Assembly: GCA_903889905.1 (NCBI GenBank)
Contig: CAISZI010000040.1
Coordinates: forward strand, 128,148-192,147
Source of the DNA: Candidatus Wirthbacteria bacterium
Lineage (GTDB): Bacteria; Patescibacteriota; CG2-30-54-11
Length of the DNA stretch: 64,000 bases
Reading direction: 5' to 3'
Position numbers and translations under genes: made by a program. The notes beneath the pieces were generated by a model. The model was not told the origin of the DNA and made no database searches. It saw only the letters and a list, made by a program, of their open reading frames with translations. This document shows, one piece after another, positions 4,351 through 51,434 of the stretch; within the stretch, counting starts at the first letter, position 1; each line of letters opens with the position of its first letter.

Positions 4351-4376
4351 TTTGACTCCTTAGATGAAGACACCAA

Positions 4377-11795: not shown

Positions 11796-11873
11796 CAGCC
11801 AAATCCACTTGGGTGGGAGAGGTTGGCGTGGTATAGTTTGAGCCATTCATGAATTGCCCAAAAAGGAGTGTTG

Positions 11874-28739: not shown

Positions 28740-28759
28740 TTCACCCAAGGATAATTCCC

Positions 28760-31700: not shown

Positions 31701-34594
31701 AACTCATCAAGCTGGATGGCGGCCAGGCCGACTGGACCTACACAATCAGTGAGCAACTACGCCCCAATGGCACTGTCGCCGTCATCATTCCCGGTCAGGA
31801 CGGGACGTTCATGGGCAGTTCACAGTCGATCGTGGTTAACAATGACGACAAGAAATTACTTCCTGCCTTGAACTTTACCGACAAAACGTATTTGCCCGGA
31901 GATCAGGTCAATTTGCAGCTTATGGTCAATGGTGCCGATGGCAAACTTGTGGCCAATGAGGCAACAGTCTATCTGGTGGACAAATCTGCTCTGGCCCTGA
32001 ACCCGTCTGCTCTTCAGGATTGGCAGACGCAATTGTATGCGCCACGCAATTACGACCTGCATACCCACAATTCGCAGGATGATTTATATGGTACGGGTGG
32101 GGGAGGCGCAGAAGGTGGCGGGGGCTGTTTTCCTGCCGGCACAACGGTGCAAACACCGAGTGGGCCAGCAGCCATCGAGACGATCCGCGCTGGCGATTCA
32201 GTCTGGTCCTATGATCTTGCCACCAGCAAAGTAGTGCCCAACACGGTAACGCAACTTCTCGTTCATTCGGAGTATACCCAGGATCCCTTGCTTGAGTTAG
32301 GCCTAAGCGATGGAACGACACTAGATATAACCGCAAATCACCGCGTTTACGATCCCAAAATCGGAGACTTCAAAGTCATCGGAGACTTCGCCATCGGCGA
32401 CAAGCTTCTCAACGGATCGGACAATAATTTGGTAACGATTGTCAGCAAAAAAGAACTTGGTGGTGGCCAGACAGTCTACAATCTTGCCCTGCAAAAAACT
32501 CCCCACACCTACCTGGTAGGCAGCGGCATCGTGGTGCACAACGACAAAAATGGCGAATCCTCGGTGCGTAAGGATTTCCGTGATAGTGCGCTCTTTGACG
32601 CCCAGGTGCAAAACAACGGCAATACCCAGATTCAAGCCAAATTACCTGACAACTTGACCACCTGGGTGGCGATTGCGCAAGTCTTTGGCCCTAATAACTC
32701 TGTTGGCCAGACGACCAGGGAACTGGTGGTTACCAAAAAGTTAATCTTGCGTCCCAGTCTGCCTGGTTTTTTGGTTACTGGCGACAAACTTGGAATCACA
32801 ACCATGGTTAATAATTATACCGGTAACAAACAAACGGTGAGTGTTGACCTAACCGGTTCCGGTTTTGACGTTGTCGGCAGTGGCAGCCAGAAAATCACAG
32901 TCAACAATGGTGACACACAGACGGTGATTTTCAACGTGCAATCCAAAGTTCCCGGCCAGATGACCGTTCACCTCAAAGCCCAGACGGCCGACGCCAAAGC
33001 GGTGGATGAAATTGAACAAAAATTACCGGTGATGGATAATACTATTGCCACACACCAGCAGTCCTTTGCCGCCCTGGGTAAAGACCAAACCCTGACCATT
33101 GGCCATCCTGGAGAGGTGAACCCCAAAGACAGTCTGGCCGTCACAGTTTATCCTTCCATACTTTCGTTGGGTAACCGTTTGTACTCCTATGTCGAAGGTC
33201 AGGATGTGCAGAATGTGCCGGCGATCAGCGCCAAATTGATCAATGACCTGCTGGTTTATCAGCTTGCACCCAGTTGGCTGGACAAAGCGCAGATGACCAA
33301 CACGATCAACAATGAAATCAATTTTATCCGCAATAACCGGACCAATAAAGGCTGGGGTTATAGTACTTATGACAGTGTTGATATCCTGACAACGATGCAA
33401 GCGATGCAGGCGCTTGGCATGGCCAAAAACATGCAGTGGGCTGGCATTGACGCCGATATGGTATCGGCCGGATTAGCCACTTTGAACGATTACCTGAATG
33501 CGGCCAATGTCAGCATGGATGACAAGGCTTTCATCCTGTATGTCGAAGCCCTGTTCGACCAGGGTAATCTGGTCAAAACGCAACAACTTGCCGACCACGT
33601 CACTGAGCTTTTACCACCGTCGCAGGCCTTTTTGAGCCTTGCACTGACGCGTTTGCACGATTCCACCCGTGCTTACCAAATCATGAGTAATCTGCTCGCG
33701 ACTGCCAAGCAGGAAAGCGGTATGAGTTATTTCCAGGGTACAGCCAAATCTTTCCAGCGCACTTTAAGTGCTCAGTTCCAGACAGGGATTGTTCTCTTTG
33801 CTGCCACCGAACTCAAACTCCCGCAGGCCGATCTGGTCAAAATGGCACAGTGGATCATGATCTCCCGCAACAGTTCAGCCTGGAAAAACCTCTATGATGC
33901 CGACGCCATGCTGACCGGTTTGGTGAGCTATGCCAGTGAGTTAGAAAAAAACAGCGCCAATTTCACTTACGAAGTCTTCCTCAACGATCAATCCATCGGT
34001 AAAGGCAAAGTCGAAAATGGTCAGCTCAGTGGTGATTCTCCGGCCATTATTGTCCCCAACACTGGTTTGCAAAAAGGTGACAATACGCTTAGGGTCCAGT
34101 CCAGTCTTGATGGCTTTACTTTATACGTAGCCACTGACAACCAAATCTGGAACGCGACACCACCGGCGAGCTCCAGGATCACTCTGGACCGCATCTATTC
34201 GACCAACGGTAACGCGTCAACTATGTTTAACCTGGGGGATACAATCACGGTCGAATACCATGTCAACGCCGCCGCTTTGCAGGGTTCATCGCTGTTGAAT
34301 TATACCAATCTGGCACTACGCGAATACTTTCCGGCTGGAATCGAATTTGGCGGCGAGGTCTATTGTCAATATGACGAGCAAGATAAATGTCTGAACCTGT
34401 GGCCAGACCAGAAGGCGCAGTTTATCAATTACTCCTCCTGGCTTTCGATGGCCAAGCTTGCTCAGGTAAAAACAGGAAAGGTTACCTACAAGGCTTCATT
34501 TCGCGGCACCTTCAATGCGCTCCCAACGTCACTTACCACAGCATTAAATGACGCCTACGCCTATACTTCTCCCACAACGATCACGATCAAGTAG
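28760..34594 (+). CDS. Giant membrane-anchored alpha-2-macroglobulin-like protein with an anti-sigma-like N-terminus and an embedded Hint/BIL domain
   Basis: AAGGA RBS before the ATG at 28760. N-terminal roughly 85-aa cytoplasmic segment plus one TM (ASLVVVVGLVGSVYGW). MG/bait-like modules (DRPIYRQGDTVKFKAI, DQYRKPDYEISV). A Hint domain (CFPAGT....VVHN). A TED-like helical region in which YVEGQD replaces the GCGEQN thioester site. Confidence 0.7.
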   Translation: MAKSNDVQPNPEQDPNLEHLADELKSIYQQEIPLRPDFKSELGSKLAADARVKSGKSSPSPKHQGQHFLESFKSFFRFPWPKWAYAGASLVVVVGLVGSVYGWSKLSQKQITSPAAVAVTHKTVVYADTELTLAKLLDSELGVLPKGSFAISSKESLNRVAFVAALKVEPAIAGDFTWSDDSKKVTFVPKTTLATGTTYHITVASTALNDKGEPLASPAEWSIQTIPTFAITSTTPADQGEGVDRTSSIEVQFNYRNVALADFQKNFSIDPSTPGKFEQHDSAFVFLSDQPLAAEKLYTVTVKKELINQDGYQLTADKVFQFRTTRQGTAQFAAEPWLDFDLRTGAIVSWTSGHTENFVGASSSNMTDADVVKFELYPVDQKTLLASRQYQYDRMFDSILPDLGSQKPTVSWQAKISELRVQGDNYSTKDFNLNIGLPNLTAGYYLVKATNDKLVSPRFIYIVVQPQQISQQVDNNHKQVVWVVDFSTGQTVPNQAVDFYTLRNQVKVIGTEFTDGNGLVVTDKYQDADAIVSKNGLLILNSGMYYTGYAGPTTPIQNYKAVMATDRPIYRQGDTVKFKAIIRMDNDGSFSPPPKGSVVLVSLGGNRSVQGSESVQTKLVLDNTNGSIAGEIKIPETTSSGDISLTLFLQNNATSDYIDSYSFPVDQYRKPDYEISVSADKQEVLSGDTVTATIKANYFFGQPVSNKQVKYTVYRTSTSEPLPGVTKTTPDQNYWYGGDQVEQKTVTLDTQGTAVVKIKSDIAGKLTSQQYSLVVEYTDESEITTSAGVGWMVHQGDFAAFAFSAKAAVRVSDKTAVTVDLYGAMSRNKWQQAVPLSMTLTRSWTDVKISEQTVYNPATKKQDVKQTRTYNRQSEAAGNLQAVTDAKGQAVFQVSLSKPGSYTLDIVGQDQAGRAINTSLVIMVSDGTAASWWQIANQQFSLSSDHESYKVGDKATLSLLTDKTSTMALAILHKNNILDYQLIKLDGGQADWTYTISEQLRPNGTVAVIIPGQDGTFMGSSQSIVVNNDDKKLLPALNFTDKTYLPGDQVNLQLMVNGADGKLVANEATVYLVDKSALALNPSALQDWQTQLYAPRNYDLHTHNSQDDLYGTGGGGAEGGGGCFPAGTTVQTPSGPAAIETIRAGDSVWSYDLATSKVVPNTVTQLLVHSEYTQDPLLELGLSDGTTLDITANHRVYDPKIGDFKVIGDFAIGDKLLNGSDNNLVTIVSKKELGGGQTVYNLALQKTPHTYLVGSGIVVHNDKNGESSVRKDFRDSALFDAQVQNNGNTQIQAKLPDNLTTWVAIAQVFGPNNSVGQTTRELVVTKKLILRPSLPGFLVTGDKLGITTMVNNYTGNKQTVSVDLTGSGFDVVGSGSQKITVNNGDTQTVIFNVQSKVPGQMTVHLKAQTADAKAVDEIEQKLPVMDNTIATHQQSFAALGKDQTLTIGHPGEVNPKDSLAVTVYPSILSLGNRLYSYVEGQDVQNVPAISAKLINDLLVYQLAPSWLDKAQMTNTINNEINFIRNNRTNKGWGYSTYDSVDILTTMQAMQALGMAKNMQWAGIDADMVSAGLATLNDYLNAANVSMDDKAFILYVEALFDQGNLVKTQQLADHVTELLPPSQAFLSLALTRLHDSTRAYQIMSNLLATAKQESGMSYFQGTAKSFQRTLSAQFQTGIVLFAATELKLPQADLVKMAQWIMISRNSSAWKNLYDADAMLTGLVSYASELEKNSANFTYEVFLNDQSIGKGKVENGQLSGDSPAIIVPNTGLQKGDNTLRVQSSLDGFTLYVATDNQIWNATPPASSRITLDRIYSTNGNASTMFNLGDTITVEYHVNAAALQGSSLLNYTNLALREYFPAGIEFGGEVYCQYDEQDKCLNLWPDQKAQFINYSSWLSMAKLAQVKTGKVTYKASFRGTFNALPTSLTTALNDAYAYTSPTTITIK
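32126..32542 (+). other. Hint / bacterial intein-like (BIL) domain inside the A2M-like ORF
   Basis: 139 aa, from Cys1 (CFPAGTTVQTP) to the terminal VVHN. It is followed by Asp, so there is no +1 Cys/Ser/Thr. There is no homing-endonuclease insert, and a Gly-rich linker (GTGGGGAEGGGG) lies immediately upstream. Confidence 0.7.
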
Positions 34595-35588: not shown

Positions 35589-36116
35589 TCATTTTGATTG
35601 TTGGCAAGCTATCAAATCTGCAGTCTTGAAAGCAATCGATTCATCAAGACGATTAATCTCACTATAATCTCCGGCTCTTTGAGCAGCCTTTAATGCATTC
35701 TTCTCCACATCAATCTTTATAATTTTGCCTAATATTTCATCAAAACGAGCGAGTTGATCTTTGAAAGCAACAATTGATTTTTCAAGCGATATTTTATCCT
35801 CGTCGCTCGTCTTTTTATCGTTACATTGCTTTTCAAGCTGGGCTATCGTGCTATCGGTTCGATCAATAGCAGCTCGTGTATCTTTTTCGCTCATGAGGAC
35901 AGGTTGGGGAATTTCATATATGAAATCTGTCCCTTGATTACCGTGTTTTGTCGTTTGCCCTCTTGCCGCGACGGCAGACAGGACCTGTCGTAACGCTCGT
36001 CGGCCAGCGGCTGCAATACGACTGAAACCAGTAGGTTCTCGAGCCTGTGATTCTGGGTTTTCCGCACTTTGCACACTTCCGTCTTCAAATAAAGCCATAC
36101 AACCTCCTAGTGACAA
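35589..36116 (-). CDS. Hypothetical protein (predicted coiled coil), immediately downstream of the giant PBP gene
   Basis: 175-aa ORF, with a 14-bp gap/overlap to the end of the giant gene. Confidence 0.45.
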   Translation of the reverse strand: MSLGGCMALFEDGSVQSAENPESQAREPTGFSRIAAAGRRALRQVLSAVAARGQTTKHGNQGTDFIYEIPQPVLMSEKDTRAAIDRTDSTIAQLEKQCNDKKTSDEDKISLEKSIVAFKDQLARFDEILGKIIKIDVEKNALKAAQRAGDYSEINRLDESIAFKTADLIACQQSK

Positions 36117-36129: not shown

Positions 36130-39100
36130 TTATTTAAGTTGAGCAAAATATTCTTCGACCATCCCTGTCGCGAGCTTAATCATGTCGAATCCACGGCCTT
36201 GACCGGCGGACAGCGTAACCGTGAACGCAATCTGGCGGCCATTTTTGTCTTCAGCAAAACCGGAAAAAATCTGGTTGTTGGAATTATTGCCTGTTTCGGC
36301 CGTACTCGTCTTGCCATAGAATTTGATCCCGGTTCTGGACTCCACACCAATAAAGGGAGCGCTAATCACCCCATCCGTGACATCAGTACGCAGCGCCTGC
36401 CTCATCCCTGCAACTTGCTCAGAGGACAAAGGTAATTGACCAGATTTTTCGGATGAAGCACCCTTGACGGTTGTTGGGACAACTTCCTGACCGTGATTGG
36501 CGACCGCCGCCATCAGGCGAGTGATTTCCATCGCCGAAAGCGAAATAGGTCCCTGGCCCATGCCCATAAATCCAGCGTCCGTGATCCCAAATTGCGTCTT
36601 GGCTTCACTGGCCCAGGCTGGATCGCCCACAGTACCATGTGACGATGGAATGCCATGCACCGCACTATCTACGCCAATACCGATAGAATGAGCAAAACGC
36701 GCGACAGCATCCAATCCCTGACTCTCAGCAATCCGTTCGCCCAGTTGATAAAAATAGACGTTGTGGGAAACGGCCAGCGCTTCGGCACCGGTGATCGGTT
36801 TGTTTACACCTTGGGACGTCGGTAGTATATGAAAGCCACCCATACCGTCGGGAATCTGCAGGATATTAGGCGTGTCTTGCGGTATATTGGTATCAATGCC
36901 ATAATGCGCGGCCGCAGCCAGAGTCAACACTTTCGCCACTGAACCCGGTGTCATGATGTCAGTGAACGCATGGCTGGTAGAATTTTCCTGGCCCTTTTCA
37001 TCCAGACTAAAAGCACTTAGCACTGCCCCGGTTTCCGGATTCATCATAATGGCGGTGAGGCCCTTACCGCCGTTGGCCGTGACAAAAGGTTTGGCCAGTT
37101 CGATATTGTGCTGATTCAATGTCGGGTCAATCGTCGTATTCTCGGCCAAAAACTGGGTGCGCTGTTCGGGAGTCAGGACTTCGGTGTTGTTGAAGAAGTT
37201 TTCTACCTGTGCGTCGCGACTGCTACTCTGATAATCATGAAATCCGGCAGGTAAATCAAATTGGCCATTCACCGCAGCCATGTAACGGCCGAATTTTCCG
37301 GCCATGGCGGTAAATTGCTCCCAGGTAACCATGACGTCGTGCGCTTTGCCGCCATCCGTGTGCGAAGGATCGGAATACACGACGAAGGTACGGCTCTCGC
37401 CATTCGTGCCCGGTTCACTGAAAATTGCCTCGACAGTGACCGTTACTTCGCTTTTCACCGCTCGTTCCAAGACCACATGGTCATGGGTGCCAACATTGCG
37501 GATCGTTGCATCTTCGCCACTGGCGGGATTGGAGAGCCACACCATCGGTTTGGCGCCATAGGTCAAACGTTCTTGCAAAACACTTAAGAAGTCAGCAATG
37601 TTGGAGGTTTCGATTGGCGTCACGTCCAAGCCAGCTTTGCTGGCAAGTGCTTCCAGGCCACGCGGGTATATGCCCACATCAGTTCTGGTCAGACCAGTTG
37701 AAGCTGAATCCAACGCCTTGGCCCAACCGAGGTTGGGGTCGATAATTGTGTAATCATCCCGTTGCGAAGCCAATTCGAAGGCCATTTGCGACATTTTGGT
37801 CGCCATCCCGTTATTCGTGAATTTCCCTTCCATGCGCAGGCTGTTCTGCCAGGCTGCCAATTGACTATCGGCCGCATCCTTTGCCTGCAACAATTCCACT
37901 GTGCTCGATCGTGGCAAAGGAACAATAGCCTCACGCTCTGTTCCTGCCTGCTGCATGACGCGTCCGAGATAGTTCCAACGCACGCCCTGTGCTTGGGAAG
38001 GATCCGGAATCAACTCATAAACATTCTGCTGTGAGTCAATCCACAAATCATCCCGGGAAATATTGTTATTATCATGACCCAAAATCTGGGTATTCAATTT
38101 GTCATACAATCGGACCGTGACACCACTATCGTCGATAATCATTTGTTCCACCGGCTTCAAATGCCCGGCAGTATCCAGTTCCTTGAGACCACCTTTGGGG
38201 GAGTAAACCAGCTGACCGCCGTTACGAGTTTGAACAACAACAGAATTGCCGTCTTTGTCCGTTGTACGAACGACATCGTACTGATCGGTGATCTGAGCAA
38301 ACGGAATAGCCCTGTCCACGGCAATTTCACCTGCCGTAGCGGTTTTGTTTGCATCGACTGTTAATATGCGGGGGGCGGTTGCCGTCGTCGACTGCTCTGC
38401 ATCAACGATATGACTGCGCCAAAGTTGCTGGTCATAATAAGCTTGCATCAAATCGGTGCTATGAGGACCAAACACCTGCTCGCGTTGAAGCGCCTCGATA
38501 AAATTTTCACCCGGGCGGCTAACAATCAGAGCAGGATCCTTGACGGGTACCGGCAGGCTACCGCTTGCAACCATGGATTCGATCAACGGCAGTGTTTCCT
38601 CACGTCCGGGAAGCAACATGCGGTTGATCTCCACCCTAGCCCGCGCGATCTCGGCATCTGAGACCATCTGGTTGTTGTTCATCAAATCCAGGCCATCATT
38701 GGCACGGCGCAACAACGCATTCACATTGTCCAGACTGGCGGCATTGTAGCGGCTTGGCATCTGAACCATGCCGGCGAGTAACACTGATTCGGCCAGATTC
38801 AAACTACCAGGATCTTTGCCAAACCATTTATTTGCAGCGGCACCAATACCTTCCACACCGCCGAAATTGCCCAAATTTTCATAGGCTGTCAAAATTTCCC
38901 GAGGACTCAGATTCATCGACAGGAATTGTGCGCGCACAAGATCTCCAATTTTGCGTTCCAGGGTTTTGCTGGCGTCAATGCTGAGCAGTTCGCGGGAAGT
39001 CTGTGTCGTGATGTTGCTGCCACCAGTCATGACTTTGCCGGTATCGGCCAGGTCACGCACAGCACGCATCGGACCCAAAGTGTCAACACCACCACCAAGT

Positions 39101-42100
39101 GCAGCAAAGCGTTTATCTTCAAAGGCCATGGTGGCCATTTGCAGATAGGGAGAAATATTTTCCAGCGGCACGGCGTTGGTCAACACGGTGTCAAATTGGT
39201 GAGTAGAACCACCGCTTGGAATTTGCAGGTTATCAATGGCTTTTTCCACTATGGAACCCATAAGTTTGAACAGCATTCCTTCATAACCCACCAATGATTC
39301 ACTTTGATGTCCTGCATTGGCCACAACGTTGGGTTTGCTGCTGGCGGACGATTCACTGGCGATTAGCTGTTCGCCCTGGTTTTTGAATTCTATCGCTGTC
39401 GCGCGGATGTCCTGCAGTTGCAAAACAAGGTCACGCAACACGGGATCCAAAATGCTGTTTAATATGTCTGCCACATTTTCCACATTGGGCAAATCGGCCT
39501 TGACTTGACGCAGCATGCCTTGCCAGAATTTCTCGTTGAGTAAGTCGGTAATATTAAAATCCATGCCCGGTTTCTCCAGTGTCCTGCCGCCAACATCCAC
39601 CCCAATCAGACCGTATTTGGCCAGCATTTCCTTTTGTCCCAGTTCCACGACACCATTGGACCTCAGCACGAAAACCCGACCATCGTCATCGGTATAAATT
39701 GGCATGCGATCAAACCAGTCAACACTGATCTTGCCATCGGCCTTGACCAGGTGCAGCCCGCGCTCTTGCATAAATTGAGCACGTGTTTCCACAGCTGCCG
39801 TACCCAAGGGCTGAATGGTTTTACCATCCAGAAAGTATGACAACCTGTCTTGACCGACAAATACCAGTTTGCCGCCATTTTTGGTCACCATGGGTTCGTT
39901 ACCGGTATGTGAAAGTGAATACGGGTTACCATCACTATCACGAAAACCTGCTTCGTCGCCAGCCCCATCAAGTCTTGAACCATCAACAACCCTGGCCAGT
40001 TGGTCCGCGACTTTTTCCAGTGAAGTTATTTTTTCATAGGCCCGATATTGGTCCACATTCAACTGATGCAAGAAACCTTTATCGGCAAACAGACGATGAC
40101 TCCCGTCAAAATCCACCCGCGTCGCCGGATCTGAGCGCAGGCTTTTGGCCATCTGCTCGTCCCAGGTCCGGGCCGTAAATCCCGAAGCTGTCAGTGTCAT
40201 TATTTCAGCAATGCGGCTGCCATCGGTGTGCACATATACAGGCAGCCCTCGGCCATCCGTGTAGGGTACCTCGTTGGCATCGACAGCAACAGCCCAGCCA
40301 CTGGCGGTAACGTAATCAGTATCCGACATCAGTTGGCTGCTTACGGGGACGAATTTTCCGTGCTCCACTACATAAGTCCCACCGTACGCTTGTTCGTATA
40401 CAATATGGCCTTTGGCATCTACCATCGGCCGGCCACCTTCCTGATGAACAGTATAGGCTTGCTGATTTGCGTCCAGCACAAAATTTCGATCGCTGGATAA
40501 TGTCAGTCCTTGATTGCCGGCGACCAAATCCGCCATCAGGTCATTTTCAATAATACCGAGGCTGTCCTGCTGTCCGACTACCGCCCGTTCCGCTACGGAA
40601 GCGATATAACCCTGCACTTCCAGCAATTGTTTCCCGTCTTTGGAGAGCACAAAAGCGTGTTTGGAAACCGGATCGATATAGGCATGTCCGCTTTCCGTAC
40701 CATTGGCCGTAGCCACTGGGAGTAGTCCTGATTGACGCATTTGCCAGGAATATTGCAAAGTACCAATATCAAACAACTTGTCAGGTCCAAGCGCACGCTC
40801 AACGGAAGTATCAAGTTGGACAACCGTGGCGACCTGGTTTAAATCCGGTTTGTCGGAATTTAATAGATATTTTCCGTTTTCATCACGATAGAGAACCCCG
40901 CCATTGGACTGCGGATCAATCCCTTTGGGAAGCAGGGTGTCGAGCGTAAGACTGGAACCTGAGTCGAGGAGAGCTTGATTGACCGCAATTCTAACCTCAG
41001 GGGATTGCAACGAGGTGAGATCCAACCCGATACCACGCACTCCCGGAACCATTTCCCGGGAACGTAGATAAGGAGCCAACGCCTTGAATCCATTTTGAGT
41101 GGCGACAGCATTCAGGTCAATTTCGTTGCCGGAACTGACAATGGCAAAATCAAAATAAACAATACCGTCCCGTGTCAGTTGCTGCGGCGAAACTCCCAGG
41201 GTTTGAAACAGTTCAAACAAACTGACATCTTTTTCCAGCGCACCGCTATCTTGATTACCTGACTGCATTAATTGCACCAGACGTTCCGCAGCCTGCGGCC
41301 GGGTATTGAGATGGCTGGCATCCACACCCAGATATTCCGCCACTTTTGTCAACCGGTTCCAGGTCGTATTCAAGGCACCTCGCGCGACACCGCCGGAATT
41401 GCTCGAATCGAGCAACACCTGTGCATTGATCTCGCCATTCGCATCCGGATCAATCCGCACATGGTTGATCCAGGCTCCTTGGTTCAAAACTACGTCATCC
41501 AGTTTGGATACCACGGAACTTAAGCGACTTTCAGTTTGTTTAATCAAATCAGCCGGCAGTTGATTCCCTTCGACCAGGATTTTATTGATCTGGATTCCTT
41601 CCTGGTTTTCTGTCCCCCGCAAAGCCTTGCCGAGTCTGTCCAGGGCGTCGCTTTGTGCGGGCAAAAAATTGTCAGCGGCTGCCTTGGCACGGACCATTTC
41701 CACCACGATTTCGTTGCGGCTGCCGCGTTCCCCAGACCAGTGGGTGTCAAGTGGTCGTGCCGTGGCAATTGTACCGTCCGGATAAATATAGAAATTGGCC
41801 AGTTCCTCGTCCTGTCGCCCAGCCTGGGCAAGGACAAAATTCTGCTTGCCCTCGGCAGACCCGAGATCGGCTTTGGTTGCTGTGGCGGTACGGACCGTCA
41901 ACTCGTGCGGCAATTGCAACATATCGTGCGTAACGGTATGGTCAATTCCCGGTAAGCGTGCAACCGCTGCCTGCGTGGCGTCTGTCATATCGATAAACTT
42001 ACCCAGATTGTGTTCACCCAGCATCAGTAAAGTAGCCTGCTCTGCAGTCCCGTAGTATTTGATGGCGCTGCCTGCGACACCATCACGCAGTGTTACGGCC

Positions 42101-45100
42101 ACTGTTCCGTCCTGGTAAACCCCGTCAAAAGTCGAAGCGCTGAAGTCACTGATTCGGGCATCGCTGCGCACCAAGCCGGAATTGATTAATTGCTGGTTCA
42201 AGCCGTCGCCTTGGGTATGCGGCGATACCAACAGTCGTTGCAGATAAGTCTGCTGGTTAGCGGCGTCGGCAAAACGATCGACGAGATCCGTACGACGGAT
42301 GGTTTGAACCCGTGTGGCAATATCGGTCGTTTCCTGCAACCGCAGAACGTCTTTACTGTCCAGCAAAAATATTTTTTGTCCCGTCTGCACTATGTCCCAT
42401 ACCGGATTGCCTTTTTGGTCGACAATCAGCGGATTGCCGTTCTGGCGCTCAGTATCCAGGCGGTTGACAAAATCATTGTAGGATCTCGCTACATCCGGAT
42501 GTGACTGGTAGAAATCCGTGAGCAGCGCCGAAAGGCTGGCCTTGTCGGTAGAGATTTCCCCAAGCCCTACGGCATTTTTGGGCAAAACTGACGTTTCAAC
42601 CGTTGGTTGATCCACGGTTTTGGTGTCGTTGGATTTGGTGTCAACGGGAGCAATGGTGTCGTTTGCCTGGGACAACAGGTGCGGAATTCCGTCGATTTGT
42701 GCTGTTTTGTGGATGATATAGAGCCATTGATCCGGCCGGATCAATGCATAACGCTCAGGCGAAATGACCTTATCGTTTTCGTCACGTATTTCGATTGAAT
42801 CGTCCACGCCGATTCCAAATGTTTTCTGAACAATGCCACTCACCGTGTCGCCGCTCTCTACACCAACCCTGACTTCCCCAATCCGATCCCCATGGTTGAT
42901 AAAATTCATAGATTCTGTCAGATTAAAATCACCCTCCACCTGTCCCTGGTCGATGCCATTTTTGACAAGCACTTTCTGCAACCGATCCAGGCTTGCAGGA
43001 TCATCAAAATTGATTCCCAGTTCATCCTTCATAAATTTCACCAGCTGACTTTCTTCCACCTTGTCCGTGATTTCACTGATCTGCCCATCGGCCAGCGCAT
43101 GCAGTCGTTCGAGCTTGGTGGCCACGGATTCCTGATGGCCGTCGGCGTCTTTGGCCAGGGTGAAACGGATGTGAAGCGTTTTTCCATCCTGAATACTGCC
43201 GGTATCCACGTTTGTGTTGGGCGGCACTTCATTCGCAGGTTCGACTTGAGGATGTACTTCTTTCGCAGTGGAGTTGGTCACGACAGGCTTAGCCGACTCC
43301 GTTGTGGACAAACGGTTTAATTCTCCTGCTGAGAGCCATTGATTGTCGGTGTAATAAAACATGTTGGCGCCGACACTGCGTACGAGTTGGCCATTCACTT
43401 CATAATACAGGTATTTGTCACCAGTTTTTTCATCTTTCAATTCCACACTGAGTGGTGCTTCCTTGTGCCCTCGGCCCAACGCAGTCAGGACGTCATTTTC
43501 CACCTGGTCAACGGCGTGTAATGGGTCCGTGTCGCGGTTAAAGGCGCCCCGATTAAACAATTCCACCACGTCATCGACAGTTTTGGCTCTACCGAGCTCT
43601 CCGATCACAAATTTTTGCATCACTTTGCTGCCCACGGATTTCGCGCCATCCGCAGCAAAGGCCAGCGTGATACCGGATTCAATTGCGGTTAGAAATTTCC
43701 ACAAACCGGAAGTTTTGACCTCCGTGCCCTGCGTCAGTTCCTTAAGCATGCCCATTAGTCGCATCAGGGTGAGATCCCCGACCAGCACGGTATTGATAGG
43801 CCCGAGATTGAAACCCATTTTTTCCAGCAACAAAAACGTGGGCGCAGCCACCGCGGCCGTCATAACCATGCCGGCTTTTTCAAGACCATGCTTGGTATCT
43901 TTGAGTTCATGCATAAATTCCTGCACTGAACCCACGGATCCACCGATCATTTTGGTGGTACGGAATATGGACCAGATTTCGCTCGGATTCAGTTCCAGCA
44001 CATTGATCGGTAAGCCCGCAAGCAGATTGGGCAATAGTAACATATTGCTGAACATGGCGGCGAAATCAGTAACCATGAGTCGTGCGGTTTCGTCGGTAAT
44101 CTTGTCACTAACTTTGACGCTTTCACCCGTGAGCTGGTCTTTCATCAATTTCCCCACTGCCTTGTCCAGCAATTCCCGTCCGCCATGTTCCCAGACATGT
44201 CCCGTGATCTTGTTGGCGCCCGTGACATGCAGCAGTTCAAAGGCTGCAGTGCCCAGAATTGCCTTGTATGCGGTTTCCAATACACTTACGCCTTCACCGC
44301 CATAGAACAGTGCTTTTTCCACCGCATCGCGCAGCGATCTACTCGCCCGTAAGTTTTCATCGCTATCACCATCCTTCGCCTGCTTGCGACCGCGCTCAGC
44401 CGCCCGTTGCTCGACGCGCTGGAGGCGCTGCGCCCGACGTTCCAGATTGCGATCCAGCACAGCGTTCACAGTTTTACCCATCGAAGTTTCGTGCAGGAAA
44501 TAGTCAACCGTACCGAGATTTTTCTGTTTCTGCCCACTCTTGAAAGAGGATAAATCTCGACGCAACTTGGCCAGAGAATTGACATAGTACACATAACCAT
44601 CAACCACAAAATTCTTTTCCTGATCTTTCGTAAACCGAATGGGTTTCAATTTAAAACTGTGTTCATCCGTCTCGTCCACTTCCACAACCTCAAAATTGTC
44701 TTCCCCCAGTCCCAATTCTTGCATCTCGCGGAAAAAGCCAGTTTCTTTTAACAAATGCCTGATTTCCTTGTGCAGATGCTTGTTTTCTTTGGCCTGTTCT
44801 GCCACACGTTTGGCGTAGGATTTACCCAACACCTCAACCGAATTCTTCAATACCAAGCTGCCATCCTGGCGATTCACCTGAAAGTGAATTTCCGTTTTTC
44901 CCTTGGGTGTAGTGACCTGATTTAGCTTGACGGTTTCCGTTCCCGGATCAAAATGACCTAATTTAGCCAATTGTTTTTCCACTTCCGCCTGCAATCTCGA
45001 ATTTGACGTGGGAACCACTTCATTTTCGGACGCGGTGGCCTGCGGATCAGACAGACGTGGCACTGCTGACGCTACCGACGACTTAATCGGACTGGAACTT

Positions 45101-45492
45101 ACTTTCGGGTCTTCGCCGATTAGACGTGCTGCTGGTAAACCATTGTTGCCGTCTGTCGCTCTTTGACCGGTGCGCTGGGTCCGCTTTTGTCTGCGGCTGT
45201 CTTGCTCATCCGCTTGGACTTTTTCCAAAGCGGTACCCTTGATCATGTCGGCAAAGTAATCAAGTGAATGAGAATCAACAACCGTTTTGCCACGACTATT
45301 GCAAATTATAAAGCTGGCTCCATCACTCGGCTGCGCGTCAGTCCCCCAGTCTTGAAACACGACAGAACTACCCTTGGGACAACGACCGCCTTTTTGATAA
45401 ACCGCCAGAATCCGGGCAGCCAGTATTTGCTGGTAATCACCCAGCACCTCTTGCTCAGCAGGCAAAACAGAATCTCTGGATATCTCAGACAT
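36130..45492 (-). CDS. Giant (about 3,120 aa) class-A penicillin-binding-protein-like protein: N-terminal region of about 2,100 aa of unknown function, then a GT51 transglycosylase, a roughly 500-aa insert and a transpeptidase
   Basis: Single uninterrupted ORF. GT51 motifs at about 38650-39180 (MAFEDKRFAALGGGVD, GGSNITTQ, RKIGDLVRAQ). Transpeptidase at about 36133-37250 (TPGSVAK = SxxK; SHN = SxN; GKTSTA = K(T/S)G-like). Hydrophobic TM-like segments at about residues 540-680. GGAG lies 7 nt before the ATG at 45492; the longer alternative starts at 45525. Confidence 0.75.
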   Translation of the reverse strand: MSEISRDSVLPAEQEVLGDYQQILAARILAVYQKGGRCPKGSSVVFQDWGTDAQPSDGASFIICNSRGKTVVDSHSLDYFADMIKGTALEKVQADEQDSRRQKRTQRTGQRATDGNNGLPAARLIGEDPKVSSSPIKSSVASAVPRLSDPQATASENEVVPTSNSRLQAEVEKQLAKLGHFDPGTETVKLNQVTTPKGKTEIHFQVNRQDGSLVLKNSVEVLGKSYAKRVAEQAKENKHLHKEIRHLLKETGFFREMQELGLGEDNFEVVEVDETDEHSFKLKPIRFTKDQEKNFVVDGYVYYVNSLAKLRRDLSSFKSGQKQKNLGTVDYFLHETSMGKTVNAVLDRNLERRAQRLQRVEQRAAERGRKQAKDGDSDENLRASRSLRDAVEKALFYGGEGVSVLETAYKAILGTAAFELLHVTGANKITGHVWEHGGRELLDKAVGKLMKDQLTGESVKVSDKITDETARLMVTDFAAMFSNMLLLPNLLAGLPINVLELNPSEIWSIFRTTKMIGGSVGSVQEFMHELKDTKHGLEKAGMVMTAAVAAPTFLLLEKMGFNLGPINTVLVGDLTLMRLMGMLKELTQGTEVKTSGLWKFLTAIESGITLAFAADGAKSVGSKVMQKFVIGELGRAKTVDDVVELFNRGAFNRDTDPLHAVDQVENDVLTALGRGHKEAPLSVELKDEKTGDKYLYYEVNGQLVRSVGANMFYYTDNQWLSAGELNRLSTTESAKPVVTNSTAKEVHPQVEPANEVPPNTNVDTGSIQDGKTLHIRFTLAKDADGHQESVATKLERLHALADGQISEITDKVEESQLVKFMKDELGINFDDPASLDRLQKVLVKNGIDQGQVEGDFNLTESMNFINHGDRIGEVRVGVESGDTVSGIVQKTFGIGVDDSIEIRDENDKVISPERYALIRPDQWLYIIHKTAQIDGIPHLLSQANDTIAPVDTKSNDTKTVDQPTVETSVLPKNAVGLGEISTDKASLSALLTDFYQSHPDVARSYNDFVNRLDTERQNGNPLIVDQKGNPVWDIVQTGQKIFLLDSKDVLRLQETTDIATRVQTIRRTDLVDRFADAANQQTYLQRLLVSPHTQGDGLNQQLINSGLVRSDARISDFSASTFDGVYQDGTVAVTLRDGVAGSAIKYYGTAEQATLLMLGEHNLGKFIDMTDATQAAVARLPGIDHTVTHDMLQLPHELTVRTATATKADLGSAEGKQNFVLAQAGRQDEELANFYIYPDGTIATARPLDTHWSGERGSRNEIVVEMVRAKAAADNFLPAQSDALDRLGKALRGTENQEGIQINKILVEGNQLPADLIKQTESRLSSVVSKLDDVVLNQGAWINHVRIDPDANGEINAQVLLDSSNSGGVARGALNTTWNRLTKVAEYLGVDASHLNTRPQAAERLVQLMQSGNQDSGALEKDVSLFELFQTLGVSPQQLTRDGIVYFDFAIVSSGNEIDLNAVATQNGFKALAPYLRSREMVPGVRGIGLDLTSLQSPEVRIAVNQALLDSGSSLTLDTLLPKGIDPQSNGGVLYRDENGKYLLNSDKPDLNQVATVVQLDTSVERALGPDKLFDIGTLQYSWQMRQSGLLPVATANGTESGHAYIDPVSKHAFVLSKDGKQLLEVQGYIASVAERAVVGQQDSLGIIENDLMADLVAGNQGLTLSSDRNFVLDANQQAYTVHQEGGRPMVDAKGHIVYEQAYGGTYVVEHGKFVPVSSQLMSDTDYVTASGWAVAVDANEVPYTDGRGLPVYVHTDGSRIAEIMTLTASGFTARTWDEQMAKSLRSDPATRVDFDGSHRLFADKGFLHQLNVDQYRAYEKITSLEKVADQLARVVDGSRLDGAGDEAGFRDSDGNPYSLSHTGNEPMVTKNGGKLVFVGQDRLSYFLDGKTIQPLGTAAVETRAQFMQERGLHLVKADGKISVDWFDRMPIYTDDDGRVFVLRSNGVVELGQKEMLAKYGLIGVDVGGRTLEKPGMDFNITDLLNEKFWQGMLRQVKADLPNVENVADILNSILDPVLRDLVLQLQDIRATAIEFKNQGEQLIASESSASSKPNVVANAGHQSESLVGYEGMLFKLMGSIVEKAIDNLQIPSGGSTHQFDTVLTNAVPLENISPYLQMATMAFEDKRFAALGGGVDTLGPMRAVRDLADTGKVMTGGSNITTQTSRELLSIDASKTLERKIGDLVRAQFLSMNLSPREILTAYENLGNFGGVEGIGAAANKWFGKDPGSLNLAESVLLAGMVQMPSRYNAASLDNVNALLRRANDGLDLMNNNQMVSDAEIARARVEINRMLLPGREETLPLIESMVASGSLPVPVKDPALIVSRPGENFIEALQREQVFGPHSTDLMQAYYDQQLWRSHIVDAEQSTTATAPRILTVDANKTATAGEIAVDRAIPFAQITDQYDVVRTTDKDGNSVVVQTRNGGQLVYSPKGGLKELDTAGHLKPVEQMIIDDSGVTVRLYDKLNTQILGHDNNNISRDDLWIDSQQNVYELIPDPSQAQGVRWNYLGRVMQQAGTEREAIVPLPRSSTVELLQAKDAADSQLAAWQNSLRMEGKFTNNGMATKMSQMAFELASQRDDYTIIDPNLGWAKALDSASTGLTRTDVGIYPRGLEALASKAGLDVTPIETSNIADFLSVLQERLTYGAKPMVWLSNPASGEDATIRNVGTHDHVVLERAVKSEVTVTVEAIFSEPGTNGESRTFVVYSDPSHTDGGKAHDVMVTWEQFTAMAGKFGRYMAAVNGQFDLPAGFHDYQSSSRDAQVENFFNNTEVLTPEQRTQFLAENTTIDPTLNQHNIELAKPFVTANGGKGLTAIMMNPETGAVLSAFSLDEKGQENSTSHAFTDIMTPGSVAKVLTLAAAAHYGIDTNIPQDTPNILQIPDGMGGFHILPTSQGVNKPITGAEALAVSHNVYFYQLGERIAESQGLDAVARFAHSIGIGVDSAVHGIPSSHGTVGDPAWASEAKTQFGITDAGFMGMGQGPISLSAMEITRLMAAVANHGQEVVPTTVKGASSEKSGQLPLSSEQVAGMRQALRTDVTDGVISAPFIGVESRTGIKFYGKTSTAETGNNSNNQIFSGFAEDKNGRQIAFTVTLSAGQGRGFDMIKLATGMVEEYFAQLK

Positions 45493-45961
45493 GTTGCATC
45501 TCCGCCATTTGGGTGAAAGCTGCATGCACTCCCTGAACGTTGCCGGCCTTCAAATCATCGGCCAGTTGCGTACCAATACCAAGTTTTTCAATTTTCTGCA
45601 TATCCATAACCGTATTCAGAATGGTTTGTGAATATTCTTCAGCAATACGCGAACTCAAGGTCCTCAATGTTTTCTGCATGTCTTTTCCCGTTCTATCTTC
45701 AATCTCTCGGATCATTTGTGGTAATTCATGCTCAGCATCGCTCTCCATTCTAATCGCCCAGCGTTGTTGTTCAGGTGCACTGAATACCGGTTCAAATACC
45801 TCTTTCCAGAACGCCAGCAAAAGCAGCCAACGCATCGCTGGTTCCGCGGCCTTGGCAATTGCCTCAGCATGCAACGTTTCTGTCGCAGGAAATATATGGT
45901 TTGGCTTGTGTATACTTTTGTCCATCGCTATTTCTGATAAAAAACAAATATATCTGATCAT
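45485..45961 (-). CDS. Hypothetical protein upstream of, and overlapping, the giant PBP gene
   Basis: 158-aa ORF with an 8-bp overlap onto the giant gene start. An alternative start is at 45925 (MDKSIHK). Confidence 0.45.
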   Translation of the reverse strand: MIRYICFLSEIAMDKSIHKPNHIFPATETLHAEAIAKAAEPAMRWLLLLAFWKEVFEPVFSAPEQQRWAIRMESDAEHELPQMIREIEDRTGKDMQKTLRTLSSRIAEEYSQTILNTVMDMQKIEKLGIGTQLADDLKAGNVQGVHAAFTQMAEMQHV

Positions 45962-46212
45962 TTTACCACAAAAAAAACATGTTCGTCTTGTTTATTGCTC
46001 TTACTCACAAGTGGAACATTTTCTTTTTTTGTATTATTGATAAGTATTATAGATAATTAATCAAATTAAGTCAATTATCATTATTAAAGCAACTTTAAGT
46101 CATAGTCATTTTCCTGTTTGCTGCCGTGGCCAGTCATAAAAGGATAACGTTGTCAAAAGCCGGCTTCTAGGCTATAATACAAGGATTTATTTACTCCAAA
46201 ACAAAAAATAAA

Positions 46213-47997: not shown

Positions 47998-49503
47998 ATG
48001 GATCGCAAAATTCCGATTTTGATGGCTTCGCAACATCCCGACAATATCTCTTCGCCATACTGGAAAAAAGACCCTTTTGTGACCACCTACGAAGAAACCG
48101 AAGAATGCTATCGTTGCTACCACGATTTGGGCTGTGATGAATATATGTGGGACTGGGAAGGCAAGCTTGTGGATGAAGCCGTGATCGACCGTTTGTTGCG
48201 CAAATACAATGAGTATTTCAGCAAACACCAAATTGGCCGTGACTTGTTTCTGACCATGCGCATTCCCAATCAAGCCTACGAATCTGGCTACCGCAATGCA
48301 CGCGCCTTTATGGGCATGTTGTCGGCTGAGGAATTCGTGCGCGACCTGAAACTCAACACACCGCCACTGTTTGAACTGATTTTGCCCATGACCACCAATG
48401 CCGAAGAACTGATGCAGATTGAAACCACTTTTCAGCGCACCGCGCAACTCAAATCCGAAGTGTTTGAGCAAAAACTGGGCATGGACCGGGTGGATGTGAT
48501 CCCGCTGTTCGAAGGCGTGGACAACCTGGTCAATTCGCACGCGATCATCCAAAAGTATTTTGCCTTGTACCGTAAACATTTTGGCCACAATCCTGAATAC
48601 CTGCGGCCGTTTGTGGCGCGTTCAGATCCTGCTCTCAACAGCGGTATCGTTGCCACCACACTGGGTATCAAAATTGCCTTGTCACAGTTTGCACAACTGG
48701 CCGAATCCACCGGCATCCCCATGTATCCGATTATCGGTCCAGGTGGGCTGCCTTTCCGCGGCCATTTGCATCCCCAGAATGTTAAACACTTTGTACGCGA
48801 ATATGCCGGGGTTTATACTGCTGTGATCCAGTCCTCGTTTCGTTATGACTGGCCCATGGACGAAGTCAAAGCTGCGCTCAAGTACCTCAAACGTGAGCTC
48901 CCCAAACGCCAGGCCGTAACGATCCCGCCCCAGGATCGGCAAGGTTTGCTCAAGATCATTGCCATTTTTGAAAACCACTACCGCAAAACCGTCGAAAAGC
49001 TGGCTGACCAGATCAATGACATCGCCGCTTATGTCCCGTCACGTCGTGAACGCATGTTGCACATTGGCCTGTTTGGTTACAGCCGCAAAGTTGGCAAAAA
49101 AGCTCTGCCACGCGCCATCAAGTTCACTTCAGCGTTGTATTCGATTGGCATCCCTCCCGAACTGATTGGGGTTGGCCGGGGACTGGCGGATATCAAGCAA
49201 GCAGGCCTGATGGACTTGCTGTTTAAATACTACGTCAATCTCGAACACGACATCAAAAACGCCGGTTACTATCTTAATCGTGAAAACCTGCAGTTTCTGG
49301 TCAATGACAGTGCGACCTGGAAAGAAGTCCAAAAAGACGTGACGCTGATCGAAGAAATTCTCGGACTGGAACTTGGCCCACGCGCGCTCGAGCACTATAT
49401 CCATCGCAATTCCACCTCCAATGTTTATTTTCTCAAGCAGGATGGCCGGGACTTTGTCAAAGAAATCGAGTGGGCCGCCAAATGGCGCAAAAGTCTTGGT
49501 TAA
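47998..49503 (+). CDS. ppcA: Archaeal-type phosphoenolpyruvate carboxylase (PpcA/atPEPC)
   Basis: MDRKIPILMASQHPDN is the hallmark N-terminus of archaeal-type PEPC. Protein of about 500 aa. GAGGA RBS 4 nt before the ATG at 47998. Confidence 0.8.
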   Translation: MDRKIPILMASQHPDNISSPYWKKDPFVTTYEETEECYRCYHDLGCDEYMWDWEGKLVDEAVIDRLLRKYNEYFSKHQIGRDLFLTMRIPNQAYESGYRNARAFMGMLSAEEFVRDLKLNTPPLFELILPMTTNAEELMQIETTFQRTAQLKSEVFEQKLGMDRVDVIPLFEGVDNLVNSHAIIQKYFALYRKHFGHNPEYLRPFVARSDPALNSGIVATTLGIKIALSQFAQLAESTGIPMYPIIGPGGLPFRGHLHPQNVKHFVREYAGVYTAVIQSSFRYDWPMDEVKAALKYLKRELPKRQAVTIPPQDRQGLLKIIAIFENHYRKTVEKLADQINDIAAYVPSRRERMLHIGLFGYSRKVGKKALPRAIKFTSALYSIGIPPELIGVGRGLADIKQAGLMDLLFKYYVNLEHDIKNAGYYLNRENLQFLVNDSATWKEVQKDVTLIEEILGLELGPRALEHYIHRNSTSNVYFLKQDGRDFVKEIEWAAKWRKSLG

Positions 49504-49532
49504 CCTTCCCAACGTATTCCAAGGAGTTTCGC

Positions 49533-51434
49533 ATGCAACGTATCTGGGTAACGCAAACAGCTCAAAAGACAGAGCAACAGGTATTGCTCAAAGGCTGGGT
49601 GCACAATCATCGCGACCATGGCAAGGTTTTGTTTGTGGATTTGCGCGACCGGTCTGGCCTGGTTCAGCTCGTCTTTCAGCACGACCAGCATGAAGCCTTG
49701 TATCAGCAGGCACGTAAACTGGGCAATGAAGATGTGATTGAAGTGCTGGGCAAAGTTGTGGGTCGTGATGCCAAGCTGGTTAACGCCAAACTCGCGACCG
49801 GTGCCATCGAAGTGGTAGTCGAATCAGTAAAAATCCTCAGCCAGTGCGCTAAACTTCCGATTGAGATCAATCAGGAAAATCTGCAATTTGCCGAAGAACT
49901 GCGTCTCAAATACCGCTATCTCGACCTGCGCCGCCCGCACATGCAGCGCAAAATGATGCTGCGCAGCCAAATGGTCAACCTTTGCCGCGAATATCTGCTC
50001 CAAAACGAATTTATCGACATTGAAACTCCGATGTTGACCAAATCCACACCCGAGGGATCGCGCGACTTTGTCGTCCCCAGCCGTTTTTACAAAGGTAAAT
50101 TTTACGCTTTGCCCCAAAGTCCGCAGCAGTACAAACAGCTGTTGATGGTGGCTGGTTACGAGCGTTACTTTCAAGTCGCCCGCTGTATCCGGGATGAAGA
50201 CCTGCGCGCCGACCGCGGCTTTGAATTCAGCCAGCTCGATCTTGAAATGTCGTTTGTGGAACAGGCCGATGTGATGAGCTTGATCGAGGCCATGGTGATC
50301 AAGGTGGTGGACACGATCGGTGGCAAAACAATTCGCCAGCGCCCTTTTCCCGTGGTGGACTACCAGGATGCTCTCAAGCAGTACGGCGCTGACAAATTCG
50401 ACATGCGCGAAGATCCCAAGCATCCAGACGAACTGGCGTTTGCTTGGGTTGTCAACTTTCCCACCTTTGTCCGTGACGAAGAAACCAAAGGCTGGACCTA
50501 TTCGCATAACCCCTTTACCGGCCCCCAACCAGAGCTGCTGGAAACCCTGCGTAGCATCGATGTACAAAACCTCAAAGACCCGGCCGAGATCGCCAAAATC
50601 CAGAATCTGACCTCCACCCAGTACGACCTGGTGTGCAACGGATTTGAAATCGGTGGTGGCGGTATTCGCATCCACGATCCCGAACTATTGTCCAAGGTAT
50701 TTGAAATTATTGGCCACTCGCCCGCCAAAATTCGCGAGCAGTTTGGCCACATGCTGGATGCGTTCCAATATGGCGTGCCGCCACACGGTGGGATTGCTCT
50801 TGGGCTGGACCGTTTTGCCATGCTGCTCACAGGCGACACGAGTTTGAAGGAAGTAATTCCATTCCCCATGACTTCCAGCGGTCACACCGCGGTCATGGAC
50901 GCACCGGCTGATGTCACTGAAGCGCAATTGGTGGAATTGGGTTTGTCGATTCGGAGCAGTGCGAAACGCTCGGTGTTCAAAGACATTTGTACCATGCTCG
51001 ATGATCGCCATATCGTTTACAAAAAGTTTGAACACGAGGCCGTACTCACTTCCGAAGACGCGGCCAGGGTACGTGGCACGCAGCTTGCCAGTGGTGCCAA
51101 AGCATTGCTCGTGAAGGCCGGCAATGACTTCCATATGGTGGTGCTTTCGGCCCAGGAAAAGCTGGATTCCAAAAAGTTACGTGACACACTGGGAGTTGCC
51201 AAAACCCGCTTTGCCACACCCGAAGAAGTACTCCAGACGACTGGCTGCGAGCTGGGCGCGGTCCCACCCTTTGGCGACATCTTCAATGTCAAACTGTGGG
51301 TGGACAAAAGTTTGTCGCGTCAAACGACGGTCGATTTCAACGCAGGGGAGCGGACACGTTCGATTGAAATGTCGTATAGTGATTATGAAAAACTGGTCAA
51401 AGCACCTATTGTCGAGGTCACCGTTACGGCATGA
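49533..51434 (+). CDS. aspS: Aspartyl-tRNA synthetase (bacterial-type core lacking the GAD insertion) fused to a C-terminal YbaK/ProX-like aminoacyl-tRNA deacylase domain
   Basis: AAGGAG RBS at 49521. N-terminal OB anticodon-binding domain (GWVHNHRDHGKVLFVDLRDRSGLVQ). Class II motif 2 ARCIRDEDLRADRGFEFSQLDLEMSF. Motif 3 GGGIRIHD..GLDRFAML. The last roughly 165 aa align with YbaK (KALLV, LDSKKLRDTLGVAKTRFATP, TGCELGAVPPFG). Confidence 0.85.
   Translation: MQRIWVTQTAQKTEQQVLLKGWVHNHRDHGKVLFVDLRDRSGLVQLVFQHDQHEALYQQARKLGNEDVIEVLGKVVGRDAKLVNAKLATGAIEVVVESVKILSQCAKLPIEINQENLQFAEELRLKYRYLDLRRPHMQRKMMLRSQMVNLCREYLLQNEFIDIETPMLTKSTPEGSRDFVVPSRFYKGKFYALPQSPQQYKQLLMVAGYERYFQVARCIRDEDLRADRGFEFSQLDLEMSFVEQADVMSLIEAMVIKVVDTIGGKTIRQRPFPVVDYQDALKQYGADKFDMREDPKHPDELAFAWVVNFPTFVRDEETKGWTYSHNPFTGPQPELLETLRSIDVQNLKDPAEIAKIQNLTSTQYDLVCNGFEIGGGGIRIHDPELLSKVFEIIGHSPAKIREQFGHMLDAFQYGVPPHGGIALGLDRFAMLLTGDTSLKEVIPFPMTSSGHTAVMDAPADVTEAQLVELGLSIRSSAKRSVFKDICTMLDDRHIVYKKFEHEAVLTSEDAARVRGTQLASGAKALLVKAGNDFHMVVLSAQEKLDSKKLRDTLGVAKTRFATPEEVLQTTGCELGAVPPFGDIFNVKLWVDKSLSRQTTVDFNAGERTRSIEMSYSDYEKLVKAPIVEVTVTA

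Follow-up and report, generated by a model that had tools for sequence, protein, structure and literature searches.

The 64,000-nucleotide (nt) stretch of Candidatus Wirthbacteria DNA analysed here (contig CAISZI010000040.1, positions 128,148 to 192,147; hereafter the window) carries on its minus strand a giant gene (36130..45525) whose product is predicted to be an intact bifunctional peptidoglycan synthase, about four times the usual size of a class-A penicillin-binding protein (PBP). Its catalytic domains, a GT51 glycosyltransferase and a serine transpeptidase, are ordinary; the architecture in which they are embedded is novel, comprising an N-terminal head, a helical module, a partner gene, a C39-fold domain and, in relatives, optional hydrolases. 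We favour, with moderate confidence, the reading that the protein is a membrane-tethered, extracytoplasmic peptidoglycan synthase mounted on a very long scaffold and made together with its partner. The family to which it belongs is apparently undescribed: neither a Pfam or NCBIfam model nor a paper was found for this architecture, and the literature yielded no description of giant PBPs.

Catalytic domains and giant relatives

The open reading frame (ORF) is uninterrupted over 3131 codons from its first ATG, the codon from which residues are numbered throughout. The start is more likely M12 at 45492, which would give a protein of 3,120 amino acids (aa), since the M12 ATG overlaps the stop codon of the ORF upstream (ATGTCTGA) and is preceded at 7 nt by a GGAG, and the protein's sole database entry (P0001), which clusters with no other sequence at 90% identity, is 3120 aa long. 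GC content is uniform along the gene (0.48-0.52), and no ORF overlapping it is above 296 aa. Self-BLAST detected no internal repeats in the protein; a loose D-x-G hairpin motif alone recurs.

The two catalytic modules reported in the first-pass annotation were both recovered by Pfam. The GT51 domain (38680..39183, minus strand; residues 2115-2282) matches Transgly (PF00912) with an E-value of 2.9e-33 and 115.2 bits against a cutoff of 27, and the transpeptidase domain (36199..37056, minus strand; residues 2824-3109) matches PF00905 with an E-value of 2e-29 and 103 bits against a cutoff of 22; no other part of the protein gave a significant match. Some 2,100 aa precede the GT51 domain and about 540 aa separate it from the transpeptidase, in line with the long extension and inter-domain insert first described for this ORF. 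All of the catalytic motifs quoted at that time are present as well, namely FEDKRF (E2136), GGSNITTQ (2168) and RKIGD (2191-2195) in the glycosyltransferase, and SVAK (S2862), SHN (2920) and KTS (residues 3072-3074, codons at 36304..36312) in the transpeptidase. The first GT51 catalytic Glu (E2136) is kept wherever the motif was located in the family (those of P0002 and P0055, introduced below, were read directly from their sequences), and the SxxK and SxN motifs are conserved throughout the family. The second catalytic Glu (RKxxE) is replaced by Asp2195, a position occupied in relatives by Asp (several) or Glu. The third transpeptidase motif is KTS in the window protein alone and KTG in all of the relatives (8/8); the variant may stem from a sequencing error or else be genuine, in which case it could inactivate or modulate the enzyme.

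Among NCBIfam models, the GT51 part is nearest to PBP_1a and PBP_1c and the transpeptidase to the class-B model pbp2_mrdA, all with scores far under the curated cutoffs (for example, 136.4 against 508.75 for PBP_1a_fam, TIGR02074, and 109.4 against 494.2 for PBP_1c, TIGR02073/PbpC). A search of PDB sequences gave the same division: the GT51 part matches class-A PBPs, the closest being PBP1a of A. baumannii and P. aeruginosa, and the transpeptidase matches class-B PBP2/MrdA entries only. The transpeptidase therefore appears to resemble class-B PBP2 more than the class-A enzymes. The protein ends about 20 aa past this domain, and Pfam detected no BiPBP_C domain at its C-terminus. As in class-A PBPs of the PBP1a/PBP1b type (PF00912 plus PF00905), a single chain carries GT51 and then a serine transpeptidase, and GT51 motifs 1, 2, 4 and 5, SxxK and SxN are shared. 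The giant differs from these enzymes in its fourfold length (3,120 versus ~700-900 aa), in having ~2,100 aa before GT51 instead of a single transmembrane (TM) helix, in carrying a 540-aa insert with a C39-fold domain where PBP1b and PBP1a have a short linker, UB2H or ODD domains, and in its class-B MrdA-like transpeptidase with KTS instead of KTG.

An exhaustive phmmer search with residues 2060-3131 against 1.84 billion representative sequences returned thousands of ordinary PBPs, and seven giants topped the list: P0003 (3450 aa), P0004 (4122), P0005 (3704), P0006 (3915), P0008 (4096), P0014 (3980) and P0055 (3091). A non-giant relative in the same list, P0002 (1,601 aa), covers residues ~2116-3130 and starts with a clear signal-peptide-like segment in place of the N-terminal region and module. 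In local phmmer alignments the giants are collinear with the window protein in up to four blocks: residues ~190-730, ~1385-1978 (weak or undetected in several relatives), the GT51 domain, and ~2466-3130, the last corresponding to the second half of the insert plus the transpeptidase. The extension, for which the first-pass annotation considered a scaffold or regulatory machine, is part of a family-wide architecture, the order of which reads as a hydrophilic N-terminus, a helical module of ~250 aa, a poorly conserved centre, GT51, a linker containing a Cys-less domain of probable C39 fold, and a PBP2-like transpeptidase; in relatives this architecture bears hydrolases too and, in one case, a Fic domain. 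The family is divergent (22-30% identity).

Scanning of GTDB genomes with the N-terminal block (a 4-sequence alignment) revealed three more loci, and a scan of genome contigs with the whole giant protein gave no match. Genome contigs contribute two further giant copies, cut by a contig end or locus end, plus one variant with different cargo; no further family member was found in metagenome contigs, viral contigs, or plasmid and phage collections. In most relatives a Beta-lactamase2-type domain with an SxxK motif follows the module and precedes GT51, and the protein at locus L003 shows the same beta-lactamase-like/GT51/transpeptidase/amidase architecture. The cargo that follows the transpeptidase varies: Peptidase_M23 in P0003, Peptidase_M28 in P0004, P0006 and P0014, Amidase_2 plus VanY in P0008, Amidase_2 at L003, and a CHAP/NlpC-like block, read directly from the sequence, in P0005, P0008 and P0055. 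In the 3,850-aa protein encoded at L004 (98..11650), the module (aa 1078-1307) is followed by Amidase_2, CHAP, VanY and Fic domains, without a synthase. A convergent neighbour of that gene (11670..13997) encodes three Laminin_G_3 domains and a clostridial-neurotoxin receptor-binding-like domain.

At three of the related loci (L001, L007 and L009) the cassette of partner and giant gene adjoins rplJ, which encodes L10, and in L001 and L007 rplA (L1) is also near; this position suggests vertical inheritance as a resident gene. The usual order of this ribosomal-protein neighbourhood is L11-L1-L10-L12, which the cassette breaks up. Other loci show peculiarities of their own. At L008, a second giant gene (1..4701; 3,967 aa by gene call) ends just upstream of the cassette, and the visible last 1,566 aa of its product have neither a Pfam match nor similarity to the family. 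On the contig encoding P0003 (L006), a 252-aa ORF of its own (817..1575), overlapping the giant start, encodes the N-terminal hydrophilic region; the gene may truly be split there, or the assembly may contain a frameshift. L002 and L004 are short contigs of metagenome-assembled genomes labelled Pseudomonadales and Gammaproteobacteria, for which mis-binning or horizontal spread is possible. The LepA encoded in the window scores about equally against those of Thermus, Aquifex and E. coli, and is clearly not gammaproteobacterial, so that the organism is no gammaproteobacterium either, whatever these labels say.

N-terminal module, central region and insert

The N-terminal region (44293..45492, minus strand; residues 12-411) is hydrophilic, highly charged and devoid of a signal peptide; from residue 190 on, it shares homology with the N-terminal parts of P0004, P0006 and P0014. 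Next comes the module that defines the family (43546..44292, minus strand; residues 412-660), which is predicted to consist entirely of helices; these are only marginally hydrophobic, and some of their charged residues (REL, EK, D) are invariant. It aligns with all the giants, 28 positions being invariant among 8 sequences. A profile of 8 members, which includes the giant protein itself and is by construction not independent of it, matches residues 413-659 at 1.8e-97; comparison of the N-terminal region with each relative by phmmer gave E-values of 1e-23 to 1e-33. The module matched nothing in Pfam or among PDB sequences, and a PDB search with the first 2,110 residues was negative as well. An AlphaFold2 (AF2) model of residues 190-760, computed from an eight-sequence alignment, depicts an all-helical module at low confidence (predicted local distance difference test, pLDDT, of 52).

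The first-pass annotation had placed several TM-like segments near residues 540-680. Hydrophobic segments do exist, but at ~480-510, 553-573, 581-598 and 607-625 rather than 540-680; they are marginal and charged, and for this reason the topology considered below is a model, not a finding. The module helices are the most hydrophobic stretches of each family protein, and no hydrophobic segment was found between residues 660 and 2115 of the giant. Individual Kyte-Doolittle maxima of these helices reach 1.3-1.67. Their simple Hessa sums are 4-7.5, as compared with -2 to 5.6 for most helices of the major facilitator superfamily (MFS) transporter encoded in the window and 2.0 for the signal-like segment of P0002. 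Among these helices, Hb (~553-571) is the likeliest to span the membrane; its flanks carry a net charge of +3 on the N-terminal side and ~0 on the C-terminal side, a distribution that fits an N-in/C-out signal-anchor. Such an anchor would roughly agree with the initial suggestion that the first ~530 aa are cytoplasmic. We propose that the module is a putative membrane anchor or export module.

The central region (39184..43545, minus strand; residues 661-2114) contains no recognised fold. Residues 1385-1978 are conserved with relatives, and residues 731-1384 are unique to the window protein. A degenerate version of the beta-lactamase-like domain was sought here and rejected, the family profile giving an E-value of 0.3 versus 1e-65 to 1e-109 on six relatives. 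A weak Amidase_2-like block (41617..41847, minus strand; residues 1227-1303) scores below the Pfam threshold (E 0.0013, 19.5 bits against a cutoff of 26); the match is confined to the window protein, the aligned block of relatives giving none.

The inter-domain insert (37057..38679, minus strand; residues 2283-2823) is conserved in the family and consists of a helical linker, a beta-rich part and a C39-like domain. It had been described as roughly 500 aa of unrecognised sequence; the length, about 540 aa, is close to that estimate, but the insert contains a C39/papain-fold domain without the catalytic Cys (37255..37677, minus strand; residues ~2617-2757). In an AF2 model of the insert built from nine sequences, mean pLDDT is 61, rising to 65-91 for the alpha/beta domain at ~2617-2757. 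When this portion of the model was submitted to Foldseek, the top PDB matches were all papain-like proteases (calpain, PeiR, SERA5, falcipain and staphopain), with probabilities of 0.97-1.0 and E-values around 1e-3; no sequence-level match to C39 was found for the insert region. Cys is absent from the giant protein after residue ~80, and family-wide there are 0-3 Cys per >3,000 residues. Just before the helix of the expected nucleophile, placed by reading the family alignment rather than from a structural alignment, all nine members (9/9) have a Pro (Y-P or N-P). On the basis of this model the domain is a predicted C39-fold pseudo-peptidase, which most likely binds rather than cleaves a peptide. 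It is comparable in principle to other C39-like domains lacking the catalytic Cys, such as the HlyB C39-like domain (PDB 3zua) and the putative C39-like peptidase 3erv; the HlyB domain, however, lies at the N-terminus of an ABC exporter and that of the giant between two PBP catalytic domains.

Partner gene and genomic neighbourhood

Immediately upstream of the giant gene lies a partner gene (45485..45961, minus strand) encoding 158 aa, the stop codon of which overlaps the probable giant start (ATGTCTGA). Its product belongs to no Pfam or NCBIfam family and is helical, as judged by eye from the sequence and family alignment. A sigma-70-like promoter (46046..46074, minus strand; TTGACT, 17 nt spacer, TATAAT) lies upstream of the partner and is proposed from its consensus match only (11/12 positions). 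A gene of 158-260 aa occupies the partner position at L001, L002, L003, L006, L007, L008, L009 and L010. The partner matches the gene upstream of P0004 (L001) by tblastn (E 4.8e-6) and aligns lengthwise with the upstream genes of L001, L002, L003, L006 and L007; at L008, L009 and L010, the genes in this position are hit by a profile of six partner proteins with E-values of 1.5e-63 to 9e-31. Shared motifs are S/T-x-x-E-Q-x-x-W and a C-terminal G-D/N-V/I-x-G. These data support the view that the partner and the giant gene are translationally coupled within one putative operon, and the partner may assist the membrane insertion of the giant or control it.

An operon with the small genes on both sides had originally been proposed. 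The upstream part of this proposal is borne out by the coupling and by homologues at eight other loci; the downstream ORF (35589..36116, minus strand; 175 aa), which begins 13 nt past the giant stop on the same strand, may be co-transcribed but is without counterpart at related loci. In a tblastn search of L001-L004, no counterpart emerged for this ORF or for the Memo-like and CAP-domain genes of the window, nor do the genes called at the other loci include an evident one.

The window represents part of a bacterial chromosome and encodes isoleucyl-tRNA synthetase, LepA, a Mur ligase, ParB, an extracytoplasmic function (ECF)-type sigma factor, an archaeal-type phosphoenolpyruvate (PEP) carboxylase, aspartyl-tRNA synthetase, ScpA, DnaX, RecR, rhamnose/glycosyltransferase genes and one tRNA, the last being the only hit of an Rfam scan; no close DNA match was found among plasmids and phages. 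At 1.5 kb from the giant gene lies a gene for a 1,977-aa alpha-2-macroglobulin (28661..34594, plus strand) with MG2, bait-region and A2M domains, in which the CxEQ thioester motif is absent. The protein is interrupted at aa 1153-1295 by a Hint/PT-HINT module that starts at GGGGC|FPAGT, ends at VVHN|D and resembles a bacterial intein-like domain. As a conserved neighbour of the giant the macroglobulin was rejected, since it has no homologue in L001-L004 (tblastn) nor among the called genes of the other related loci.

Three further genes of the window, all on the plus strand, deserve mention. A 1,696-aa ORF (15580..20670) that is lysine-rich, contains 18% glutamate and lacks a Pfam match is another large orphan protein. 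The aspartyl-tRNA synthetase (49470..51434), located directly after the archaeal-type PEP carboxylase, carries a C-terminal YbaK-type aminoacyl-tRNA editing domain. RecR (57869..58750; 293 aa) has recognised domains only from residue ~100, its N-terminal extension being unexplained.

Proposed function and alternative readings

In the favoured reading, the N-terminal ~550 residues would stay in the cytoplasm, the helix at ~553-571 with its net-positive N-terminal flank would act as a signal-anchor, possibly helped by the partner protein, and the remaining ~2,560 residues would sit outside the membrane. There, the GT51 domain would polymerise lipid II via E2136, with D2195 standing for the usual second Glu, and the transpeptidase would cross-link stem peptides via S2862, while the C39-like pseudo-peptidase would probably bind a peptide ligand (a stem peptide or a regulator) without cleavage. 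The central region would serve as a spacer or scaffold, which in relatives bears the domain resembling a beta-lactamase or low-molecular-weight (LMW) PBP. That the catalytic end works outside the cytoplasm is suggested by P0002, because this protein opens with a signal-peptide-like segment, and the near-absence of Cys across the family points in the same direction. Since relatives carry the beta-lactamase/LMW-PBP-like domain and C-terminal hydrolases (M23, M28, amidase, VanY or CHAP-like), the family taken together resembles a wall-remodelling machine of the 'synthase plus hydrolase' kind built into one polypeptide, of which the window copy would be a synthase-only form.

Several observations weigh against this assignment. 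Family-mean 19-residue Kyte-Doolittle peaks of the module are only 0.8-1.15, below ordinary TM hydrophobicity, and every helix contains 2-4 charged residues, among which are invariant ones (EK, D, R); as no module helix attains the hydrophobicity of an ordinary TM segment, anchoring and topology are tentative. The AF2 model of the N-terminal part (pLDDT 52) is poor. There is no TM helix directly before GT51, a feature that, to our knowledge, every characterised class-A PBP possesses. The KTG motif and the second GT51 Glu occupy positions that matter for PBP activity, and the replacements seen here, KTS and Asp, could mean that either domain is impaired. Finally, L004 keeps the module but swaps the synthase for amidase, CHAP, VanY and Fic, and the great rarity and divergence of the family (22-30% identity) are more in keeping with an accessory or conflict protein under rapid evolution than with a core synthase.

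The main rival explanation, which we consider rather unlikely, is that the family comprises polymorphic giant effectors. In this view the N-terminal region, module and partner would form a delivery or export apparatus, the variable downstream enzymes would act on the wall of a different cell, be it a competitor, a prey cell or an episymbiont's host, and the synthase modules would remodel or reseal that foreign wall. Variable cargo (M23, M28, amidase, VanY, CHAP-like) on a constant N-module, the synthase-free L004 protein beside its neurotoxin-receptor-binding-like gene, a small conserved partner reminiscent of the chaperones of secreted toxins, extreme divergence and rarity, and the fact that neither a classical signal peptide nor a TM helix is present would all be accommodated. 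A constant N-terminal part, variable enzymatic cargo and a small conserved adjacent gene are likewise found across families of polymorphic toxins (LXG of the type VII secretion system (T7SS), CdiA, Rhs, MARTX). Unlike in these systems, however, the N-module matches no known trafficking domain (Pfam, NCBIfam, PDB), neither the window nor the related loci contain secretion-system genes, and the partner is upstream, with no conserved immunity-like gene downstream. Moreover, GT51 and transpeptidase are biosynthetic and need lipid II, and the position beside ribosomal-protein genes at three loci, conserved in one subclade, suggests a resident gene. The more radical proposal that the N-terminal region, module and partner constitute a new export or delivery system for giant wall enzymes, with the cargo (synthase, hydrolases or Fic) used on another cell's wall, appears unlikely to us; if true, peptidoglycan synthesis would be deployed outside the producer's sacculus, for example in opening and then rebuilding a junction during episymbiosis or predation.

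The neighbouring macroglobulin gene raises the question of whether the giant is a PBP1C-type repair synthase in the manner proposed for E. coli yfhM-pbpC, the macroglobulin trapping invading proteases and the PBP repairing the wall. An association of alpha-2-macroglobulin with PBP1C is documented for E. coli yfhM-pbpC (PMC4498604), where, as here, a gene for a bifunctional PBP lies beside a large alpha-2-macroglobulin gene, and the PBP_1c and PbpC models do match the GT51 region. In the window, by contrast, the two genes are convergent and do not form one operon, the macroglobulin lacks the CxEQ thioester, the PBP_1c score (109 versus a cutoff of 494) is far too low, BiPBP_C is missing and the association is not seen at other loci, which makes this pairing very improbable. 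Hardly credible is the last alternative, that the long ORF is an artefact, either an assembly chimera or a fusion created by a frameshift. The contig is of metagenome type, the protein is a singleton at 90% identity, and the separate N-terminal ORF at L006 indicates that split forms or errors do occur; against this, seven independent assemblies encode full-length, collinear relatives with the same order of five blocks, two genome contigs add further copies, and composition is uniform with no overlapping ORF >296 aa. As independent assemblies give the same order of parts, a frameshift or mis-join is not a plausible source of the ORF, which we regard as intact, as the first-pass annotation had assumed; its collinear relatives span 3,100-4,100 aa.

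Very large proteins with wall-active domains are also encoded by uncultured Omnitrophota, whose 'giant genes' have been implicated in cell-wall degradation (bioRxiv 10.1101/2023.11.21.568195). The likeness is one of size, uncultured lineage and wall-active content. The Omnitrophota giants, however, exceed this family tenfold in length, and that study reports neither PBPs nor GT51 or transpeptidase domains among them.

Few bacterial enzymes have been studied as thoroughly as the class-A PBPs, which are also prime targets of antibiotics. A narrow architecture is generally attributed to them, in which a TM anchor is followed by GT51, a short linker and a transpeptidase. The proteins of this family, 3,000-4,100 aa long, break the pattern with a probable cytoplasmic head of ~550 aa, a novel module, an obligate partner gene and a pseudo-protease between the two catalytic sites, and the relatives break it further with built-in hydrolases and a beta-lactamase-like domain. 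The family raises the question of how an extracytoplasmic chain of ~2,500 aa is exported without a classical signal, and the pair of module and partner could turn out to carry giant wall-active proteins in general. The family represents a natural 'fused holoenzyme' in which the coupling of peptidoglycan synthesis and hydrolysis can be studied.

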